A stretch of 64,000 bases of DNA. Origin: Paraspadella gotoi (lineage: Eukaryota > Animalia > Chaetognatha). The stretch spans positions 4,410,152 to 4,474,151 of the forward strand of contig CM119270.1 of NCBI GenBank assembly GCA_051294375.1, written 5' to 3'. Positions 4,214 to 63,391 of this stretch are shown here, piece after piece; the first letter of the stretch is position 1; every line of letters begins with the position of its first letter. Made by a program: the position numbers and the translations under genes. The notes beneath the pieces were generated by a model, which saw only the letters and a program-made list of their open reading frames with translations, was not told where the DNA came from and searched no databases.

Positions 4214-5169
4214 CAATTAGTAGTAGACAGGGATTTCTGATGCGAAAACCAAAGTGGATTTTATTTCTTTCGAAAATTAAAACGATAAACAAGACGTGTC
4301 AATTTCAGGCAGAGAGTGAATCCAATACAGAATTCGGGTCCTTTTACTACAGCCCAACGATCGGAGTCAAGGTTTTAAAATTTCCCGACCATTTTTCATT
4401 GGCCGGCTGCCATTTTGTCTTTCAAACCAATGAGATCTGTTCCATTGTATTCCGATCCGATCCGTTATCGATCCGTTATCCGATTCCGTTGATCCGATTC
4501 GGATCTTGAGTCTGGATGTCCTCTCGATTGCGTCCCCCCCTCCTCAGACCGACAGCGCACGTGGTCAGTCCAGGTAGCTGGAGTTGTGGAACCGTGAGCG
4601 GGGGAACGGAAGATTCCTGTTCTTGACTTTCTCCAAGGCTCAGCCTCTCTGGCTGTTGTTGTATTTGAAAGGTTTCTTTTTTTGAGACGGTCTTTGAATT
4701 GATTCTTTTCTTCTGTAGGAGAGTGGAGCGAGAAGGGGAGATGAGAAATTCTCTTTTTATTTTGAACGAGAGAAGAGAGAGAGAGAATGAGTAGGTTTCT
4801 CTTGAATAAAAATTACTCGTTCCTCCTGGCTCCCGTTCTATTGCGTCGTTCTCCTATTGTTTTTCTTTTTTTTTTTTGCTTGGTCGTTTCGGTGAGGGTC
4901 GGGCTTCCGTGGGAGGCTTTGTTTTCTTTTGTATTTTTTTGTCGAGTTTCTGTTTCGCGGCTTTTCGTGGTCTTTTGTTTTCGAATTCCAATCGAGAAGT
5001 TACCATATAGTCTACGGTTTTTTTTTGGTCTACTTTCTAATGCCTACGTTCCTTGTGTGAATAACTAATCCATGTTTTATTTAAATTAATTTTTAATTAA
5101 TTCTAAGTATTATTTACACTAACTTTATGTCTCTTTTTCTATTCTGTTGGCCTTGTCTCAGCTTTTTGA

Positions 5170-8100
5170 GGCGACGTCGATTGATATCTGAGATTTCGGC
5201 CAGCTATCGAGATGACGTTAATGGTTGCCGTCTCTCTCTTACAACCTCTGTAGAGACCTGAATATACCTTTTGACCTTCTCGGTTTCGCTCGCTTTCCGG
5301 TCCCTATGATCAGATCCCGTTCTGGCCAGGACAAGATCGCCGGACCTTAATTCTCTTCATTGGTCGCTGTTAAAGGGTTTCTTCTGGCCGATTTTTGTAA
5401 TAGCTTGTCCCCGCTGGTTCGCCAGCTGTGCTTGAGCTCTTTCTTGCTTTGTCGCCTTATGTCTTATAAAAGTCGAAATGAGGATCCTTTTTGTGAAGTC
5501 GTCGAGCGCTTTCCACTTTCTTTGGCCTGTGAGCCAAACTGGATTTCATGCGTGACATTGTCCTTCGTCTTCCAGGCGATTATGGGGGTTCGCATTAGGA
5601 GTAGGCATCAGGTGTGGCAGCTGTTCCAGCCATCTGTTTGTTGATCGTCGACGCTTTGCGTAGGGCTTGGCGGATTCGGCCTATGTTCCCCTTCTCGGCC
5701 CTGTTGGCTATCTTTCCTCCTACAAGGACTCGTCCTGCCTACTGTGTCAAGTAGGATTTAAATTGACTTCATTGCTGATCCGTTAGTTGTTTGCAACCAT
5801 CCGAAATTTACTTCCATGTAGGCCCCATTGTTTGAGAGAAATTTCTTTGTCGAGAGCTTTTACGATGGTCGTGGCATCTGCTCGACGGTAGTGGGGATTG
5901 CCCAGTGTATGGCGAAGTCATTGTCTGATGCCAACTAGAATTGCTAGCCATGTCCAGCCGACAGAGGGGAGATGCATGGACGTCGATGCCTCAATGATCC
6001 CAGGGTGCCTATGGCCAGATTAGGAGCTGATGGGGTTCGTAGCTTCTTTGTGTGTCCGTTGCCTTTGGTCGCAAATTATCACAGTTTCTGAGGACATTTT
6101 CCACTGGCGGCTGCTATAGCCGGGTGCTGAAAAACATATTGGCAGTTATATAAATTGCCACGACGATCGCGGCCGGGATTGTCCAAACACGTTCGTTTGT
6201 AATTGTTTATGTGATCAATTTCTGCTTTCTGGCGGGTACGCACGATTTTTTTGTTGTGTTGTGTATTCGGCCTTGAAGCCTCTTGATGATGAGAATGTCG
6301 TTGTTTTGAGTCGAGATCATCCAGACAATGTGACAAGTATTTTTTCAGTTACTGTTTTTCTCTTTTGCCATTTTCTCGTATTAACTTTGTTTGGCTTTTT
6401 CGCGGTCTCTTCCTTGAGGGCGTCAATGGACCAGTTAAAGGAAATCGTCTTCTGTTGCACTTTTTTATTTCGGGTGGCGAGTGGGGAGCTTGCATTGCCT
6501 TTCTTGTGTTGGGTGATTCCATGTGCAACCTCAGCTTCCGGTTGGTGTCGATGTCCGCCTCAAGGGTGCTGTCTTGTCATGAGTTTCATGATCGGTGCCT
6601 GTTTTATTCACTTCTATTGTGTCAGAACTTTGAACGGGTGGAAGTTGTGAGCTTGACGTTTCCTTTCGTGTCTAGGGCTGGATGTTTACGAAATCCTGTG
6701 GAGCGCGTCGATATGTCGGGTGGGCTACCGTGGCGTTCGGTCGTCCCCTGCGTTCGGGTTGTTTTGAGCATATCGACCTTGATTGGTTTGGATTTGGCCC
6801 AAAGCTGATGGTCGTAGGGGGCGTGACTCGTTTAATGTCATTGACTAGGCTAACTTGCTTCCGGTAATGGTTTCTGAAGATTTCAGTGGTTCTCTCGTAT
6901 GTCCCTCGGCGAAGGCCATATACCCTTTCGAATTGCAGGGCCTGTCTCCTTGGTCGAGTCTTCGTCCTTCATGATTATGGTAATTTGATTCATTTCCACT
7001 GAAGGCCATTTCCAAGTTTCGGGGTTGGCCGAGACTCCAATTTTTGGCTGGAAATTGGTTCTGATGAAAGGGCATCAGATCCTTTGTTTGGGCTTGCCGT
7101 CCCCAATTTTTTCAATGTTGGCTTTTGTTGGTAAGAATTTTTGTCTTACGAATTTCAAAAAAATTTTTGCCCTGAAGGATTTTGTGTCCTCGTTTAGTGT
7201 CTTGCTACTTAATGCTAGTGTGGGGCGTGTCCGTGATGAGTTCTAGATGTCTGGAGTTCCTGCGTCATAGATGGAATTTTCGGCGAAACTGGGTTATTTA
7301 CTCTTCCTGTACGTCAAATCCCGCTGGGAAGAATGGAGTATCAAGGCGTCACTTGACCTTAATCAGTTGAAAACGGGTTAGAAAGGTTCAGCCGGGTTAT
7401 CTTCGCTTTTAACGAGATAACTTCCTTGGGTTTGCGCATTCTTGTTTGAATTTGTCCGTAATCCACCTGTAGTACGTCGTGGCATAGCTGTTGCCTGTCG
7501 TGTTGAAGATCCATCACCCTTTTGAAAGTATTGTGAATCTGTTGACGAGGGTGACGCTACGCCCACAAGTTTAGCCTTAAAACTTTCGCACATCATATTG
7601 AAGGCGAGTGTCTCCAGAATGTTTGATATGTTTTATCCCTGTAGTCGTCTGGGAATGATTTTTGAGTGGAAGGACAAATGGATACTCGACGCCATCTGCG
7701 GTGGCGGTGATTTAAACCGCCCATTGCGCTTGTGCCTGGCATGCAGCATAAAAATTCTGTACGGATCCGTGTTTGATTCTCGCATCATTGAGGAAGTTCA
7801 AGCAGTTCTGATAGATCTGAATTTTCTTCGACAAGTAGTTGTAAGCATTTCCATGTGTTTGGTCGTTAGCTTGAAAATCCTTTTTGTCTAGCAGGGTTAG
7901 GGCCATGGAGGGCTGGCAATGTAGAGGAAACGATGTGTGAAGATCTATTAATTAATTTTAAATGGATGCTTAACATCGCTCTGATTTCTTTCTGCGTTTT
8001 CAGCGACTTAAGTTTGATTTCGACGCGTCATAGTTTTTCTCTTTGTGGCATGAGTTTGCTTTGGGAGATACTGAAAGCCCAGGATTTTAATCCTCCTTGC

Positions 8101-9560
8101 GCAGTAGCACAACTTTTTGTCCATTTGAGGACCACGTTTTCATCTCTACACATCTTTGCAAGAGGGTCGCGCAAGTCTCTAGCCATGTCGTCTGGCAGAT
8201 TTTGCTGTTGAGGAATTAGGTCGTCGACATAAACGAGAAAGCTTTTTATGTCTGTGCCCTAAAATCCTGGAAAATTTCAGTCGTAGGATGGCCCTTGGAG
8301 GACGTTTACGCTGCTTGACTCCTTCCCATTGCAGCTTGCTTCATCCACCAGTTGTGGCCGGCTCGCAAAAAGTGGTGACGGTGTTTGCAGGGCTTGTGAA
8401 TTTACCTGTGGAAAACATGCCAAGATTTCGCGGAGCATTGAGCTCGTTGAGCTTGTATTGTTCAATATTGAAGCTATGTTTGAGGTTCTGTTGCGTAAGT
8501 GGATTATGTTATTAATTCAACCTGCCGAGAGGTCGCATATCAATCGCCCTGCTTGCAAATGTTTCGTCGTTCATTTGTTCCTGCCTCAGCATGTGTCCGG
8601 GTTCTGATTAGGAGGCGGTTTTGAATATGCCTCGTTCCTTGTTCTTAGAAACTATGCCAAGCTTTTCATAGACTTAAACTAGAGGTAACGTTAAGCGCCT
8701 TCTTGACGGTCCCTGTAATTAGCAATTTTGTTTCGGGAGGATTCGTTCGTTTGTGATATAGCCCAGGGTTTCGACTTGTAATGAGGAAACCCTCTTGCAG
8801 TCGTAATGGATTCTCCAAACACATCATATCCCAGACGACATCCAAACAATTGGGCTTTTTCTTTGAGCTAGCGCTACCGGTCTTTGAATGCTTCAAAAAA
8901 GGCTTCTTATGCCCCGGTCGTTCATGTTTTGCTCTTTCTCCTTGGCCGAGCTTCTCCACTGCTTAAGTTCCTCAAACGCTTGTTTATGGTGAACTATAGT
9001 TGTAGCCGGATGTGATCCTTGCGGACTTCCCTCAACAGAGTTCTTTTCCTGTTTAAGTCGCTTGTACTGGTTCCACCGTGGATTGTTTCGAGTTTTTAAC
9101 TCGTTTTTGCCTCGTTAGTATCGCAGGGCGTGCTGTTCCCCAGGACAGTCAGTTGTCTAATTCAACTCCTTCTTTAATTGTCTTCCATCGTGATTCTTGC
9201 GTCTCGTGATTAGTCCATCTCGTCCCTGTTAATTGTGCGAATAAGCCGTTGTTGGAGGTCAGTCTAGTTTTCCCTTATCCTTTTCGGATTTGTGGGTAAG
9301 AGTTGGGTCATCGACGTTTCCCCGCGCAACCGATCTCGGCCTTTAAGCTCTTGTTGTCCAAGGGTGGCTAGTGGGTTTTTTCCTGAGCGACTGGAATCTT
9401 CTTATGATGTTGGACTACCAAGTGTTGGTGGCCTGTTTAATAGCAGTTCCAATATTAGTCTGTCTTTTCGCGCCAGACTAAAAGACGTTCGGTATACCCG
9501 CATGAAATCACCCTCAGTTATTCTTTCACAGGTGACGTCCATGCCGTTATAACTTGTACC
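5170..9560 (-). mobile_element. Ty3/Gypsy LTR retrotransposon internal region (gag?-PR-RT-RNaseH-IN), frameshifted
   Basis: Minus strand, in Gypsy order: protease-end-like LDVVWDM (~8830-8850), RT 'RLICDL' (~8530-8548), RT catalytic 'FLVYVDDL' (YVDD at 8231-8220), RNase H-like 'PYRIF...GVEYPFV.HSKII...ILETLAF' (~7770-7600), integrase-like 'GIDV...HWAIP' (~5990-5895). Many frameshifts; no LTR pair found. Confidence 0.85.
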
Positions 9561-10236
9561 TTGGTAACTACATTACAACCCATTTTCGGAATTCCGGGTT
9601 ACCTGTGATGAGCCCTGTTTCTAAGCAACTACGTAACCTGGATTACCCGAAAAACCTTTCTCTGTAACACCTCTTTTGTCTTTCTTCATTTTTCTTAAAG
9701 GAGCCTTTTCAAAAAAAAATCTTGTTGAAGCTTCAACTCTCTCGGGCCTCCAGGCCTCCAGGCCTCCGCTCTAAAGTTTTTGTTTTATAATAATTTTTTA
9801 GGCGAACAAAAAAGAAAAATCCGTGACAAGACACGAACCAGTGGCTGCGCCAATACTTGCAAATGGTTTTCAAGGGTTCCGAAATTTAAATGTAATTTTA
9901 CGAGTCAAAATATCATTGTGCAAATTATGGTTACTAGAGGCGTAGTGTCATTTCAAAATAAAGTCAAAATGTCATTTCCTAAGTCATTTCCCAAGTGTGT
10001 TTTCCCAGATGGCACAATTGTGGTAACATGAAGAAATTCAATTTAACTTCTTTCATTATAAACAATTAAACAAAAGGCGACTGAAGGAACATCTACATAC
10101 TTGAGAGGAGCCACATCACGACCTTCATTACTCTTGTATTTATTCCATTGGATGCTGGGGCGGAGACAGAAGAAGTGATAGACTGAAAATCAAAATGAGA
10201 GAAGTTGGAATGAAAGAGGGAAAGAGAGAGAGAGAG

Positions 10237-32260: not shown

Positions 32261-32474
32261 CGGTGGCTCATTGAGTAAATGAGTATAGCCATTAGCTCAT
32301 GACTACAAGCTACCGGGTTCAATCCCAATCCGGTACCTACCCTGGCGGATGCGTTAGGAACCGCCGTAAACCGCCCTTAGGGCGTGGAAAATCTCTAGTC
32401 TGGTTCCAAACTTGGCCACTAGAGGGGTTAAAGAAGATGCGGATAGTCATCTTCAGCCCCTTTGGCGCCTTATC
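32261..32474 (+). mobile_element. tRNA-derived SINE family A
   Basis: A-box-like TGGCTCATTGAGT (~32264) and B-box GGTTCAATCCC (32316-32326). The body matches reverse-complement copies at 59395-59490 and 59936-60130. Confidence 0.8.
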
Positions 32475-56568: not shown

Positions 56569-58908
56569 TCATCAACAAACGTTCACTTTTCATACTTTTA
56601 GTCCACCGATAACCATCTCCCATCCGACGACAACGCCGGCAGGAAATCGATCGGCGAATCCGGCGACGAAACGGGGCGCCGGTTGATCGGATGGAATCGC
56701 GTGGCGGCGTTCGGCATCGGAAGCAGCGCCAAATGGCGACGTCCGATGCGAGAGGAGCGAGTCGCGGATCGACACTTCGACGCCAAGATCGAGGATGTCA
56801 CGGAGATGCAATGTTCTGATGAGGGTCGAGGCAAAACGGGGAACAGAGATGGAGTGACAAGGCGATACGTTGCTTGCTTAGATGTAGAAGATAAAAAGAT
56901 TAAGATTGACTCTTTGACCAAGGATGTCGCAGAGATGCGATGTGATGACCATCAAGGCAAAGCAGAGAACAGATTTGGAGTGTCGAGGCGATACGCCGCT
57001 TGCTTTGATGTAGAGGATAAAAAGATTAAGATTGACTCTTTGACCAAGGATGTCGCGGAGATGCGATGTTGTGATAGGGGTCAAGGCGAAGTGGGAAACA
57101 GAATTGGAGTGCCTAGGCGATATGCCGCTTGCTTTGATGTAGAGGATAACAAGATTAAGATTGACTCTTTGACCAATGATGTTGCAGAAAAACAATGTTG
57201 TGATGATGGTCGAAGCAAAGCTGGGAACAGAGTTGGAGTGACGAGGCGATACGCCGCTTGCTTTGATGTAAAGGATAAAAAGATTGACTCTTTGAAGGCA
57301 AAAGAATCAGAAATTCAAGTTAATGTTGTTCCTGCTCAGAAGGGCTCAGAAGCAATGCATTTTAAAACAAGGTTTTCAGGGAGCAAAAACTGCCTTAAGG
57401 ACGTTTGCAGCACTGACAGTTGCGACCTTGACAACAAACTGGAAGCTCTTATAGAGTCTGATCATATATTTCCAGACAGACAGAACATAGAAACTCCTAT
57501 TTTAAAAGAAAGGGTCTTTGTAAGTGATGTGGACAATACTTGTTATAAAGAAAATAGTTCAGAGACTGAATATCATAATCTACTAAATTTTTTAACCAAA
57601 GTTAATCATTCAGATGATGATTCCGTCTTTAAGGCTGTTCCATCATTCTCCACAACAAGTTTTGAGAGTGATGACAAGAATTCAGAAGCTGCCGTGTCAA
57701 AGGTGTGTTTGCTGGAAAACAGAGATAAAGACAAAGCATCCAGTGGCTCTTTATGTTTCAACTCGGATATTGCAGAGATGCGATGTGATGATGGTCGAGC
57801 CAAAGCAAGGAACAGAGTTGGAGTGACAAGGCGATACGCCGCTTGCTTTGATGTAAAAGATAAAAATATTAAGATTAACTCTTTGACCAAGGATGTCACG
57901 GAGATGCGATGTTGTGATGATGGTCGAGGCAAAGCGGGGAACCGAGTTGGAGTGACAAGGCGATACGCCGCTTGCTTTGATGTAAAGGATAAAAAGATTA
58001 AGATTAACTCTTTGACCAAGGATGTCACGGAGATGCGATGTTGTGATGATGGTCAAGGCAAAACGGGAAACAGAGTTGGAGTGACTAGGCGATATGCTGC
58101 TTGCTTCGATGTAGAGGATAAAAAGATTAAGATTGACTCTTGGAATGCAAAAGAATCAGAAATTCAAGTTCAGGGTGATTGTTTGGAAGCAACACATTTT
58201 AAAACAAGGTTCTCAGGGAGCAAAAACGGCCTTGAGGACATTTGCAGCACTGACAGTTGCGACCTTGACCGCAAACTGGAAGCTCTTACAGAGTCTGATC
58301 ATATATGTCCAGACGGCCAGAACATAGACACACCTATTTTAAAAGAAAGGGTCTTTGTAAGTGATGTGGACAACACCGGTTATCAAGCAAATAGTTTAGA
58401 GACTGGATATCATTCGGATGATGATCCCGTATTTAAGGCTGTTCCATCATTCTCCACCACAAGTTTTGAGAGTGATGACAAGAATTCAGAAGCTGCTGGG
58501 TCAAAGGTGAGTTTGCTGGAAAACAGAGATAAGGATGAAGCGTCCAGCGGCTCTTCTAGTTCCGACTCGGAGCAGGAGGAAAAATTAACCTCCTGTTCGA
58601 AAGTTAAGTGGTCAGAGGGCACTTACCAACTCAAGGACAGCACGTCTTGTAGTTCGAAATGGTCAGGGGACGAGGACAGAATCATGAAAGCCAGATCATG
58701 GAACGACATAAGTTCCGAGTGCGAATTCAACAACATCGAAAACGCGAAATGGTCAGAAGGCGATGATAACCACAGCGAAGAAGAAGCGACTTGTACCAGC
58801 GAATTAAAGTGGAACAATTACGCCAGTTGGAGCTCGATGAATGCTGATTCTGAAGAATTTTATCCTAGTAAAATGGGAAGGGGGATATTCAAAAAACAAG
58901 AATGGTAA
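56485..58908 (+). CDS. Tandem-repeat Cys-rich protein, ~770 aa (ATG exon 56485-56487 + exon 56602-58908)
   Basis: The 2.3-kb open frame begins exactly after the acceptor ttttag (56601); ATG|gtgaga donor upstream is in phase 0. Seven 42-43-aa repeats (DVAEMRCCDDGRGKAGNRVGVTRRYAACFDVEDKKIKIDSLTK) plus two long spacer repeats; all indels are frame-preserving. Confidence 0.7.
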
Positions 58909-59277
58909 TTCAAATGTGTTGTGCCGCAGTGACTGCCTTATCACGTGTATTTCTTATGATATGACATAACATGACAAAATAACTTTCTTAGACCATGTAT
59001 TTATGACATGCACTGCATCAAAATTCCGTCTTTTATTCTATTTTAGTTTTAGGATTTCCTGAAGGCGGTGCTGGAAGTCCCTTAAATTTGAGGTTGTTTC
59101 TGTCTTAACAAAAGAGCAACCAACTATAGCAACCAATTATAGTATAGGGAAATTATATGCATTTTTAACATAAGTGGGACAGATCGACGGATAGACATAC
59201 CAACGGACAGACCGACCGACCAACAAGTGACTTATAGAGTTTCTCCGCTAGTACTCGCGGCGTAACTAAAAAAAAAA
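58891..59277 (+). mobile_element. HINE-like family C copy 2
   Basis: Colinear with 10237-10533; 5' gttgtgccgc vs 3' gcggcgtaac inverted subterminal motif; (GACC/GACA) tract; ttatagag + hairpin + ctaaaaa. Confidence 0.7.
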
Positions 59278-59394
59278 TTGGCACTTCTTGTAAAAGACTC
59301 CTGAAATAGTTAAAATATATTCAAATTAAAAATAAACTTTATAAATTATACATTTTTTAGATATACATAAAAAAGTGAAACTAAATAAACTTTT

Positions 59395-59490
59395 GTGGAT
59401 AAGGCGCTACTTTGGCTGAAGATGACTATCCGTAACTTCTATAAGCCCCTCTAGCAGCCATGGAATGGGTCCTGGGCTTGGTACCAGGTT
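59395..59490 (-). mobile_element. SINE family A 3' fragment
   Basis: gataaggcgc..ggctgaagatgactatccg..cccctctag is the reverse complement of 32418-32474. Confidence 0.75.
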
Positions 59491-59935
59491 TGAATTTTTT
59501 AAATTTTACTGAAGATACAGCCTTATAATAAAATACAAATTCTAAAATCAATGTAACTACAGGGTTTGGACTTAAAACTTACCCCCCATAAGAAAAATTA
59601 CTATTTCCTTTGATAATTTGTACTTAATGATAGATCTGAAAAATTTGGTTTTATCAATTATTTGATTGGTCATTTTACTACATGTTTTAAAAAGTATACC
59701 TTACTTAGGACCCTTCCAAAGATGAGTAGTAAGGCGTAGTGAAAGTTGCAGATCAAAATTCGAACGGTTGCTCATGAACAGTCTTGTACTAAAGAACATT
59801 GATATATAAACAACATTTTTTTTAGTTTCTCAATTTTTGCATACGCCCATATTTATACATAGTACTAAATTTCAAAACCTAAATATTAATTTAAATTGAT
59901 AATATAAGATTTTTTACCTTAAAAGCTTTGAAATA

Positions 59936-60130
59936 TGTGGATAAGGCGCTAAGTGGGCTGAAGAGTGCTATCCGCAACTTTTTAAACCCCTCTCGCTGGA
60001 ACTAGGCTTTAAGGTTTTCTACACCCCCATGGCGGTTTACAGCTGTTTACGGCTTTTCCCGCAGGGTAGATACCATTGGGGAACGATCCCACTATATAAT
60101 GGTCAAGACTCAAGTGTACTTTAGTATAGC
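59936..60130 (-). mobile_element. SINE family A, near full length
   Basis: Reverse complement aligns to 32315-32474, including a degenerate B box and taccctg/taaaccgcc motifs. Confidence 0.75.
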
Positions 60131-60227
60131 ATAACATTTTTTTGGAAAGTTTACCAAATATGTTTTTGAAAAATTTTGAAGAGACAGTAATTATTGATAA
60201 GTGTTAATGACAGAACCGTTCAATGTA

Positions 60228-60303
60228 AGCAGTCCCTGAGCTTCGGATCAGACTGTAACACCGTGTTACAGGCGGGTTAAGCGCCCCGTCCCTCTTAACT
60301 GCT
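60228..60303 (-). ncRNA. Twister ribozyme (P5-permuted), copy 1
   Basis: Minus strand AGCAGU uaa GAGG GACGG GGCGCU UAA CCC GC CUGUAACA-cgg-UGUUACAG UCUGA UCCGAAGC UCAGG g ACUGCU. Twister loop 4, GC/GC pseudoknot, CCG/CGG pseudoknot; predicted U^A cut between 60279 and 60278. Confidence 0.8.
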
Positions 60304-60658
60304 AGGCGGCCACCGGGCTAGAACCCCGGACATTTTAGTTGGGAGGCGAATGACTTGCCTCCGACACCAATGGCCGCTGATGAAGCGGTTGGGTGAGATT
60401 TTAGTCCACCATACATACCCCCCCTCACCGTTAGGGAGAAGTCTGTTGCGTCTCTTCAGTGAATTGTTGTTGTGGTGGAAAGTGCGTCACCAAGTTGAGG
60501 CATGTCGCCCTGATGTGTTGTTGGCGGAAAGTGCATCGCCAGGTTTGAGGCATTGTCGCCTGAATATGTTGTTGTTTGTCGTTGTGTTCGGAAGTCGGGC
60601 TCACCAATGAAGAGACAGTAATTATTGATAAGTGTTAATGACAGAACGTTCAATGTAA

Positions 60659-60734
60659 AGCAGTCCCTGAGCTTCGGATCAGGCTGTAACACCGTGTTAC
60701 AGGCGGGTTAAGCACCCCGTCCCTCTTAACTGCT
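60659..60734 (-). ncRNA. Twister ribozyme (P5-permuted), copy 2
   Basis: Same core; P4 base pair C-G (U-G in copy 1); P1 segment GGUGCU; predicted cut between 60710 and 60709. Confidence 0.8.
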
Positions 60735-60941
60735 AGGCGGCCACCGGGCTAGAACCCTGGACCTTTTGAGTTTGAGGCGAATGACTTGCCTCCGGCACCA
60801 ATGGCCGCTGATGAATGTTGGTGGATTTTAGTAGCACCATAATTTTATAGTATTTTAGCTATCATAGGCATATTTTACCAGAGGTGCCTTTAGTAAGGAT
60901 TCATTTTATCCACATTTTTTGTACCCATTTACGAAGGCTTA

Positions 60942-60950
60942 CTATAAATA
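60942..60950 (+). promoter_or_regulatory. TATA box candidate
   Basis: ctataaata ~40 nt upstream of ATG 60984. Confidence 0.45.
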
Positions 60951-60983
60951 AACCAAGTTACAAGATCCCCTTCCCATTTCACT

Positions 60984-62160
60984 ATGAAAGGATGTTGTCA
61001 AACAAGCTTTGACTGGAACGAGGACATCGACAGAGATTTGTACGTGGAGGAATCTCAAAACTCTCCGATAGACTCTCAATTTTCAGCAGTCATTGACACT
61101 CACATAGATGTCGTTCACTCAAACATTGACATCATTGACTCTCAGAATCCAGATTGCAGCAGTTGGCCAGTCGACGTAAACATTGACATCATGGACTCTC
61201 AGAATCCCGATTGCAGCGGTTGGCCAATCGATGTAAACGTTGACATCATTGACTCTCAGAATCCAGATTGCAGCGGTTGGCCAGTCGATGTAAACATTGC
61301 AGAGGAAGTTGACGCCGTTGGTTGCTACTCTGTCCTCCCGCACACAGACCCCGGTGTCATTCCAATGAATCCTTTTGCGGCCGAGTGGCATCAATACCTC
61401 ACGCCATCATTTCATCCCAATTGGAACAATAACAACAATAACCAAGGAATTGTGCTCGACCCTGAGTTACTCCGCATCGATCCAGAAGTCAAACGTTCGA
61501 TCACAGGCGATATTTGTGGGGTCACTTACACCATGGCGGGACCTGATGATTCAATGGATGAATGGATCCCACTGAATACTGAGGAGAATGAAGGGACTTT
61601 TGTTCATCACATTGTGCATCATTATGTTTCGCCATCAAACCCCCCACACACCGTCGCCGCCTGCCCGGTTATTCCCGCTCCTCCTCCTCCAGGCAACAGT
61701 TGGCAGATAAATCTACCCACTGAACCAATCGAGGTGACTGATTGTACCCTGAGATGGCACGCCGATCCATCAAGTCCAGCAATGGAGCAGCCACCGATGT
61801 CTGTTTTGGAGGATACGCCTTATGTTGTTGGGAAATCATCATCATCATCATCTTTGGCTGCGTATTCAGTGGTGTCGCCTATTCCATCGCTTCTGTCGGC
61901 CGCAGCTTGGTCTCCTTATGCCTCGAACCCATCGTCAGTCTGCTTGTCAGCCACAAGATCAAATGTCTCGCCTAACTCATCAACAACGACGCTGCTGTCT
62001 CTTCCTGATTGGCCTCCCCAGAACCAACCATTGATGCTACCTTGTATGCAAACTTGGTGGCAATTTTTGCCATTTCACCCAATGAAGCCCTCATGGCAGA
62101 CAGAGCGACGTTTCAATGAAGCTGGCACGTTTAATTATGCATCGATAAAGATCGCCGGCG
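60984..62160 (+). CDS. KH-domain protein gene, exon 1 (acidic 19-aa repeats, P/S-rich low complexity)
   Basis: Long ORF from ATG 60984 with three NIDIIDSQNPDCSGWPVDV repeats; donor G|gtaggt at 62161 (phase 1) after SIKIAG. Confidence 0.7.
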
Positions 62161-62998
62161 GTAGGTGGTTGTTTTGATTCATGTACGATTTTAAGAAAAA
62201 TAATAATTTATTTGGGGTCATCTTGTCAGTTCAACTGTGGGGTGTCACGCCAGATTGACTCAGAATTTTTTTCAGAATTTTTTAAAGGTTTTTCTTGCCA
62301 GGTAGATTCTGCTCTAAGTTTCCCATCTTATGAGAATCTGAAAATCTTACAGTCGACCTGATAAGAAAAGTGCAATTGACTGAATTGATCTTCAGAGAAA
62401 AAAAAAGATGTTGTAACAATGTAAGTCGATGTAATGAGAATTTTTTTTTCCAAAAACTTTAACCGTTTTTTTCCCGGACATCACGAGAGGATATAAGTAT
62501 AAGATGCAAGTTTTTTTTATTGAATTAATGTGCATGATTAATATCAATCAATAGATTAAAGAATTGATACATGAAGGTATAGTATAAAGTATTTGCTACA
62601 TTGTTCATATTGGGACTCTCATTAACATAAATAGAATTAGGTGTAGATCGATTCAGGAATTTTTTATTTTCTCATCATGTCGATTCACATTTTTTATTTT
62701 TCTCATCAGATCGATCCACAAAATATTCATTTTCTTATCGGATCGAAAAAGAAGTTTCTAAATTTTTTTTTCTTATGACATCGATTTTTTTCTCATCACA
62801 TCAATGTCGATTCTATGAAAAAAATTAAATGAGAATCGTTCTCATGAGGACAATTATCGATCTGGAGACATGTACCCATTTAGATGATAGGAAGATTTCT
62901 CTAGTGTTTTTGATACTGAATTTTGCTTTTTGTTAATTTCTCATTTGCCTAAAAAAATATCATCAAAGAAGCTAAATGTAAGCTTTGTTTTTGAAAAG

Positions 62999-63192
62999 GA
63001 TATCGGCAGATTCTTGAAGGGCTGGAGATTTATTTGTCAAAACCGTTACAAGAGGCCACAAGCGAAATTGAAACGTTCTGGCAATGCTGCTGCTTTGAAA
63101 ACTTGGCACCAATGGAAGCCGCTTTGGAAATCAACTTCCCAGCGAGTCTCTTGGACCAGCTCATCGGGAAGAATGGAGAAAATGTCAAGCGG
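62999..63192 (+). CDS. KH-domain protein exon containing the GxxG loop
   Basis: aag|GA TAT..: GYRQILEGLEIYL...LEINFPASLLDQLIGKNGENVKR|gtatga; IGKNGENVKR is the canonical KH signature. Confidence 0.8.
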
Positions 63193-63391
63193 GTATGAAT
63201 GGTGTTTAACAAATGTTAATTGACATGTGTTGATGGTGCGAGTTACAAATTTGAAATTACCAGCAATCCTAGATCTGAATAATAGAAATTATGAATTTCT
63301 GAGAATATGGGACGATTGCAAATGGGAAGGGTAGCCGGTCACAGTAAGAAGTCAACATCATCCTCTTGCAATTTTCCCTTTCATCACTCAG

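Follow-up and report, generated by a model that had tools for sequence, protein, structure and literature searches.

A twister-like fold in the terminal repeats of a high-copy non-coding mobile repeat of Paraspadella gotoi, a likely counterpart of the hammerhead retrozymes

A locus of the chaetognath Paraspadella gotoi, in which each copy of a direct repeat carries a minus-strand twister-like motif, raises the question of what kind of element it is and whether its two putative ribozymes act alone or as a pair. The locus lies at 60177-60842 of the window, by which we mean the whole 64,000-nt stretch that was analysed (contig CM119270.1 of assembly GCA_051294375.1, positions 4,410,152 to 4,474,151); coordinates are those of the window, and the parts of the element are on the minus strand unless stated otherwise. 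The initial annotation had described a 431-bp unit repeated about 1.5 times with a minus-strand core in each copy, and had proposed a dimer-activated twister analogue of the animal retrozymes. The direct repeat does have a spacing of 431 bp (240 aligned nt, 92.9% identity between copies A and B) and each copy does hold a core, but the 1.5-unit layout is better read as a terminal repeat, a 192-bp spacer and a second terminal repeat. Terminal repeat A, the upstream copy, is about 235 bp long (60608-60842), and its similarity to copy B ends at 60841-60842. Terminal repeat B occupies 60177-60415, with 60177 as the main end of the repeat family to which the locus belongs. The non-coding spacer between them (60416-60607) contains three degenerate AC-rich repeats of ~50 nt. 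We also considered the spacer as a coding relic and rejected this, since it has no long frame and no Pfam match.

The minus strand of each copy reads, in order, the 5' strand of P5, AA, GAGG, GACGG, a 6-nt segment and UAA, followed by CCC, GC, the P3 hairpin, P4 with the loop UCCGAAGC, and the 3' strand of P5. A 6-bp P5 helix closes the core, and the topology is therefore that of type P5. On the basis of sequence and fold, core A (60660-60733) was divided into P5 (60733-60728/60665-60660), the GAGG 3' strand of P2 (60725-60722) with CCC as its 5' strand, GACGG of L1 (60721-60717), the palindromic 6-mer (60716-60711), UAA (60710-60708) with a predicted cut at 60710^60709, the GC of T2 between CCC and P3, P3 itself (60702-60684), which is a 19-nt near-perfect palindrome, and P4/L4 (60683-60666). 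Core B (60229-60302) has its 6-mer, GGCGCU, at 60285-60280 and its predicted cut at 60279^60278. The core elements, the segments GGUGCU and GGCGCU and both scissile positions are where the initial annotation had placed them, and the cut-to-cut unit is 431 nt as it had said. Both copies have the UAA cleavage triplet with GACGG opposite, together with P3, P5 and a P4 hairpin with an 8-nt L4. Both pseudoknots pair in both copies, T2 as GC:GC and T1 as CCG:CGG, the latter being the proposed change from the usual CCC/GGG. We then used a P5-permuted descriptor, derived from Table 1 of PMC8501958 and demanding generic pairing in P2, P3, P4, P5 and T1. It had two matches in the window, one at each copy, and none in 150 block shuffles (18 Mb); its catalytic-core positions are all intact in copies A and B.

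Two helices depart from the twister pattern. P2 has 3 bp with a bulged A where four Watson-Crick pairs are expected, and no local hairpin is possible for P1, only an intermolecular 6-bp duplex. The short, bulged P2 had been raised as a caveat; it is a true departure, but three published Naiad motifs share the form. In the twister literature P3 and P5 are optional parts, P1 is reported as dispensable, and a P2 of altered length is said to be a possible threat to the active site (PMC5408937), while the L1 guanine is given as the general base (PMC8501958). Rfam 15 gave no twister match at E<=1 over 8 kb or at E<=10 over 681 bp, and the same scans found no hammerhead and weak snoRNA matches only. 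The initial annotation had named the absence of a covariance-model match as refuting a ribozyme, and as evidence against one the result stands; we gave it little weight, since the consensus encoded in those models is one from which P1 and P2 differ here. A plus-strand CUGAUGA was considered as part of a hammerhead and dropped, no GAAA partner being seen.

By P1, P2 and Rfam the locus is not a textbook twister. It has in common with twister type P5 (Rfam twister clan; PMC5408937) the P5 end, UAA with GA in L1, an L4 of the form U-NNN-AAGC, both pseudoknots, and the P3 and P4 hairpins. It differs from that type by one 6-nt palindrome in place of the P1 stem, the 3-bp bulged P2, T1 as CCG:CGG and the missing Rfam match, and cleavage here is a prediction. 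The T-variant twisters of Perere-3 RTE elements (Liu et al. 2021, PMC8501958) are likewise carried by a retrotransposon, have a defective P1 and are similar in P3 sequence. However, those are of type P1, lie at the 5' end and rely on the target duplication to complete P1, whereas the present motif is of type P5, lies near the 3' end and has a palindrome. The twister-like fold of the locus is real. We consider it very probable that a twister fold is conserved here, and probable that the ribozyme is active in some context.

Relatives of the fold were sought by pattern scans, which gave 22 metagenome, 11 viral, 120 GTDB and 120 further viral loci. BLAST of the element against all 273 pattern loci gave one 26-nt match and no homolog. 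P4 was scored in 133 pattern matches, 131 of them outside the window, and one of the outside matches (L142) reached 4 bp. This match also has a plausible P2, the CCG:CGG pseudoknot variant and a 7-nt P1 segment, and it could be either chance or a bacterial type-P5 variant. Literature searches, in which subscription papers were not covered, found no dimeric twister, no twister retrozyme and no twister in Penelope-like elements (PLEs).

In sequencing runs, the terminal repeat belongs to a family of high copy. Part of the stretch was contained in 10 of 12 listed runs, nine of these from one organism; run X10, from organism B, had two contigs that were less than 90% alike and was left out. Contigs on a 106-nt core numbered 5,967, 762, 374 and 4,956 in four runs. 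The depth of the terminal repeat is thousands of times that of the flanks, and the family depth of the spacer is several-fold below that of the terminal repeat, ratios which we do not take as copy numbers. The family has two alternative 3' ends, 60226 and 60177, which are 49 bp apart; counted from the predicted cut, they are 52 and 101 nt further on. Flanking sequences that are AT-rich and unrelated to one another start at 60176/60177 in 69+65 contigs of run X1 and 19 of X9, and at 60226 in 18, 13 and 22 contigs of X1, X5 and X2. The flank consensus is AT-rich and partly TA-like, in a genome that is itself AT-rich. The 49 bp between the two ends form a tail, at 60177-60225 in copy B and 60608-60656 in copy A, and 6 of the 26 listed pieces begin at 60226-60229. 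A further boundary, at ~60413, recurs in three listed contigs and in copy A. In X1 and X5 we found a joint from 60794 to 60226, as expected of two units in head-to-tail order that have neither tail nor spacer. This joint suggests that tandem units of ~186 bp, without tail and spacer, exist elsewhere; ~186 bp is the size of a classical animal retrozyme monomer. The many contigs and many insertion sites exclude the single genomic locus that the initial annotation had named as fatal to a retrozyme model. The mobile repeat is non-coding and of high copy, and the locus is a single, aged member of it.

Variation within the family was assessed for ~60245-60288; P5, the GA of L1 and the 3' part of L4 lie outside this part, and the shares given are those of contigs weighted by depth and do not count copies. 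In this part, the only variants that exceed 10% of depth are beside the P3 loop and at a site private to copy B. The positions beside the P3 loop vary at 32-55% (60263) and 5-12% (60264). Sites at 44-76% are found in the tail and upstream. The private site is the P4 position at which the two copies differ: 98-99.8% of family depth carries the base of copy A. The C-G/U-G difference, which had been put forward as a difference that keeps pairing, is thus a private change of copy B and the covariation falls away. For the P1 segment the relation is reversed, GGCGCU being the family form. GGUGCU of copy A is a 0.2-5.2% minority on the copy-B stretch, at a CpG, and is probably decay. Depth is smooth across the cut site and no end among those listed falls there, which fits uncut or circular templates.

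For the origin of the family, we compared the published Naiad consensi (PMC8557442 supplement), reading by eye the last ~600 nt of 23 of the 54 records, with names assigned by file order. A twister-like motif of P5 type is present on the sense strand in five of the 23 3' ends (Mgal, Bpla, Mphi, Scon and Mmer); it was not seen in the last ~600 nt of the other 18. P1 is replaced by self-complementary stretches of differing sequence in all five, and P2 has 3 bp and one bulged base in three of them, as here, and four pairs in two. T2 is AC:GU or CC:GG in those ends and GC:GC here. T1 is ACC:GGU in two and has one U-U mismatch in three, compared to CCG:CGG here. A search of the published Naiad, Chlamys and Hydra consensi, in which line breaks can hide matches, did not show the exact L4, P1 and P3 motifs of the present family in a twister context. 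Seven of the twister-less Naiad ends, namely the 3' ends before the Sglo, Tgra, Pmar, Mcor, Skow-2, Pfla-2 and Ebur headers (PMC8557442 File S5), share another structured motif with a CACCUG element. That motif has a central self-complementary stretch and is possibly a further ribozyme-like fold. At the other end of the unit is a GGTGGA..TCC hairpin (60391-60410, with a degenerate copy at ~60821-60839), which reads alike on both strands, so that its orientation is ambiguous. A GGTGGA..TCC motif stands near the start of 10 of the 23 Naiad records. In the loose-end consensus the end hairpin of the family has 16 nt in common with the start of Naiad-2_Pfla, and 14 nt in copy A of the window.

Other features are also those of Penelope-like elements. 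A partial tandem that forms pseudo-LTRs is seen here as 1.5 units and as the one head-to-tail joint, and an optional tail is seen as the two 3' ends with unrelated flanks. The PLE tail has been described as what lies between two positions at which reverse transcription can begin, close to an AC-rich stem-loop, the targets being ATT (PMC11167929); by subtraction from the figures of that paper, the distal site is 85-92 nt past the ribozyme cut. In our locus, the spacer repeats are 67% A+C and enclosed by a predicted stem that begins at the tail end (z -1.6, a modest value), the last 10 nt of the tail of copy A being predicted to pair with 60449-60458 and to close the AC-rich loop. The locus shares with Naiad PLEs (PMC8557442) a twister-like variant, a similar end hairpin, the partial tandem, the tail and perhaps AT-rich targets, whereas it has no ORF, a 431-bp unit and one short palindrome in place of two longer ones. 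Its tail of 49 bp also differs from the published PLE tails of 30-40 bp and counts against a Naiad reading. So do the motifs that resemble a primer-binding site (PBS) and a polypurine tract (PPT), and the ~60413 boundary, which random 5' truncation does not explain. The likeness is at the level of motifs, and to Naiads of other species. We rather favour a Naiad/PLE origin.

We then considered whether the two copies need one another. The initial annotation had held that P1 cannot form a local hairpin and that the 6-nt segments are self- and cross-complementary, and the calculation bears out both points. Closing even one local pair in the 6-mer costs +3.9 kcal/mol, and the 6-mers form 6-bp duplexes at -3.8 and -8.3 kcal/mol, and at -6.4 kcal/mol for the cross-duplex. 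The chance of full self-complementarity for a 6-mer, G-U pairs allowed, is 5%, and in a single family the palindrome is therefore weak evidence by itself. In a nested fold of the tandem transcript, the model paired P3 across the copies with p>0.99 for most pairs and swapped the inner P5 with 0.96, although repeated hairpins of any kind can swap to some degree. The cross-pairing probability of P1 was 0 in this fold, and a nested model cannot represent pseudoknots. Obligate dimer activation, as proposed, comes out weakened: the copies do pair in the model, via P3 and P5, but not via P1, and P1-less twisters can cleave. Twisters without P1 have been reported to cleave at almost wild-type rate (PMC5408937), so the missing hairpin does not imply a need for a dimer, and a tether of 6 nt might just be looped out. 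Pairing draws its best support from comparison, with the P1-position palindromes of five Naiad families and with the PLE hammerheads, which cleave as dimers via a palindrome (PMC6765202). We judge the chances about even that pairing raises the cleavage rate. An obligate dimer is plausible and, in our estimate, unlikely.

A competing account is an ordinary, monomer-active twister in which the dispensable P1 is a 6-nt loop, the palindrome is incidental, the locus is a routine PLE partial tandem and no circle is made. It draws on the dispensability of P1 in vitro (PMC5408937), on the 5% chance level and on the absence of P1 cross-pairing from the fold model. It also agrees with a 431-nt unit that has no special structure and with the one PLE assayed in vitro, for which uncut RNA was used and insertion had no need of ribozyme cleavage (PMC11167929). 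However, differing palindromes occupy the P1 position in five Naiad ends, the smooth depth with no listed family end at the cut site fits uncut templates, and a second source calls cleavage of P1-less twisters inefficient (PMC8501958). We regard this account as improbable.

If both sites were cut, the predicted product would be a 431-nt monomer (60279-60709), a candidate circle whose cleavage ends would be ligatable by established chemistry (PMC7229834). The 431-nt unit was predicted to be 51% paired as a circle, compared to more than 70% in the described retrozyme circles (PMC4918200), and its linear fold was no better than shuffles (z -0.65). A ligated junction would have the same sequence as the tandem DNA, and contigs cannot tell the two apart. 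We think it rather doubtful that 431-nt circles accumulate. Metazoan non-LTR retrozymes (Cervera and de la Pena 2020, PMC7229834) are also non-coding, high-copy repeats with a 150-450-bp unit. They have a self-cleaving motif per unit, as predicted here, some of them need dimers, and they are reported as non-autonomous PLE derivatives (bioRxiv 10.64898/2026.07.22.740005), as is likely here. They carry a type I hammerhead in each unit, whereas the locus has a twister-like fold and no Rfam hammerhead, a GC content of about 52% and the PBS/PPT-like motifs. By layout the locus is like a retrozyme; with no hammerhead it falls outside the described class, and its circle is a candidate. The idea of a retrozyme analogue thus holds to the extent that a twister-type fold sits in a high-copy non-coding mobile repeat, a likely counterpart of the animal retrozymes. 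Its strongest form, an obligate double twister that swaps palindromic P1/P3 and yields a 431-nt cleavage-silent circle which the Naiad enzyme would copy for more than one turn, we hold to be unlikely.

A non-autonomous LTR retrotransposon of TRIM type would account for the repeats in another way, as two ~237-bp LTRs with a tRNA-Trp-like PBS, a polypurine tract and many solo LTRs. A Naiad-type ribozyme would then have been captured into an LTR, giving an animal LTR retrozyme with a twister. Two direct terminal repeats do surround a non-coding core, and the depth of the terminal repeat is several-fold over that of the spacer. The main family end is CA, and in the loose-end consensus a purine run (60418-60426) stands directly before TG at repeat B. 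The recurring ~60413 boundary and a candidate 5-bp target-site duplication (TSD), AATTT at 60172-60176 on the plus strand with its partner at 60841-60845 (chance about 0.03), also agree with LTRs. TG...CA ends are the rule for LTRs. Here, a single fixed pair of TG...CA ends with a 4-6-bp TSD was not found: the second end at 60226 has no CA, has unrelated flanks and takes part in the head-to-tail joint, and the duplication-supported end of the locus copy has neither CA nor TG. The PBS-like motif (60594-60605) begins with TGG, 2 nt after repeat A, and matches 10 of the first 12 nt of the printed Trp PBS of the CsRn1 clade (PMC3587641), whose members use a tRNA-Trp primer and have 4-bp TSDs; the comparison is with the printed sites of that clade, which may not be the tRNA of this host, and a tRNA scan found none. 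However, the same motif is one of the three spacer repeats. Plant LTR retrozymes (Cervera et al. 2016, PMC4918200) have exactly such a layout, with a ribozyme in each of two repeats around a spacer, PBS/PPT-like motifs, a short TSD and solo repeats. The locus differs from them in its two alternative 3' ends, in ends that are not cleanly TG...CA, in its smaller size and in having a twister where they have a type III hammerhead, and it is not an element of the plant type. The ribozyme and the end hairpin are both like parts of Naiads, and the pLTR of MRC1, a non-autonomous PLE, once led to its wrong placement among the LTR elements. On this evidence an LTR origin is not likely.

That the fold is a catalytically dead relic inside a successful repeat is very unlikely: the Rfam result, the short and bulged P2, the 7% difference between the two terminal repeats of the locus and a study in which 1 of 9 hammerhead retrozyme dimers cleaved would agree with it, but every catalytic-core position that the descriptor requires is preserved in copies A and B, variation is low in the assessable core, and three Naiad families have the bulged P2 too, with compensatory changes.

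The reading we prefer is an aged, non-autonomous derivative of Naiad type, with type-P5 twister-like terminal repeats that are predicted to cut, maybe better when paired; taken as a whole, it has in our view an even chance of being right. In such an element, minus-strand RNA would be bound by a Naiad reverse transcriptase/endonuclease supplied in trans. Reverse transcription would start at either of two sites beside the AC-rich stem-loop, 52 or 101 nt 3' of the scissile bond, and priming at an AT-rich nick would give tail-less and tailed copies. A lone ribozyme would be slow, most templates would be copied uncut, and solo terminal units spanning the cut site would result. In a tandem transcript the copies would pair via P3, P5 and possibly the P1 palindrome, both would be cut, and the 431-nt piece would be ligatable. 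A circle or multimer could then be the template for copies of more than one unit, such as this locus.

The setting of the locus bears on which strand is transcribed. A contig of run X9 joins 58867 to 60991 across a GT...AG intron of 2,123 bp (58868-60990, plus strand). Once joined, the ORFs at 56602 and 60948 form part of one uninterrupted frame of 1,151 codons. None of the listed runs with the stretch is recorded as RNA, but X9, with its spliced join, contains RNA, although its contigs show neither strand nor transcript ends nor level. The element lies antisense inside the intron. Read-through from the host would therefore yield the non-catalytic strand. This position, the two family ends, the Naiad link and the LTR-like motifs were all missing from the initial annotation. 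A 21-nt inverted repeat occurs at both intron ends (58863-58883/60967-60987), and the intron resembles a transposon with terminal inverted repeats which brings along the donor site itself, much as an introner would. No homologs were found for the proteins flanking the element, in DNA that is rich in microsatellites.

Several other features were observed in the window. A second high-copy repeat family is present at 59394-59448 and 59936-60100 on the plus strand and at 32310-32474 on the minus strand, and its left end is sharply defined at 59936, where 78 flanks in X1 are unrelated. Conserved in this family is a GGCGC(C/U) palindrome; half of a hammerhead core, CUGAAGA, and a stem of GGAUA/UAUCC are also present, and the whole may be a rearranged hammerhead. 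A decayed retroelement at ~4500-9700 (minus strand) has fragmentary frames, with a YVDD reverse-transcriptase-like motif at 8031-8258; it gave no Pfam match and has no similarity to the twister element. A short frame at 62995-63198 (plus strand) has a weak match to a KH domain (E 0.083, below cut-off), and no homolog of it was found.

What ribozymes do for Penelope-like elements is still debated, and Naiads have been reported to be without canonical hammerheads (Craig et al. 2021, PMC8557442). If a ribozyme of another, unrelated class stood in that position and used the palindrome device by which PLE hammerheads are made dependent on dimers, this would be convergence, and such convergence would argue for selection of copy-number-gated cleavage. 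What the locus contributes is a non-autonomous form that is compact, of high copy and reduced to a minimal palindrome. It is also a ready test piece for in vitro work, since its 666 bp have both copies in cis, would give a defined product of 431 nt and allow simple controls of the palindrome. In our best reading it is likely the twister counterpart of the hammerhead retrozymes. A double-twister retrozyme, if true, would be the first of its class and would fill the ribozyme gap reported for Naiads.
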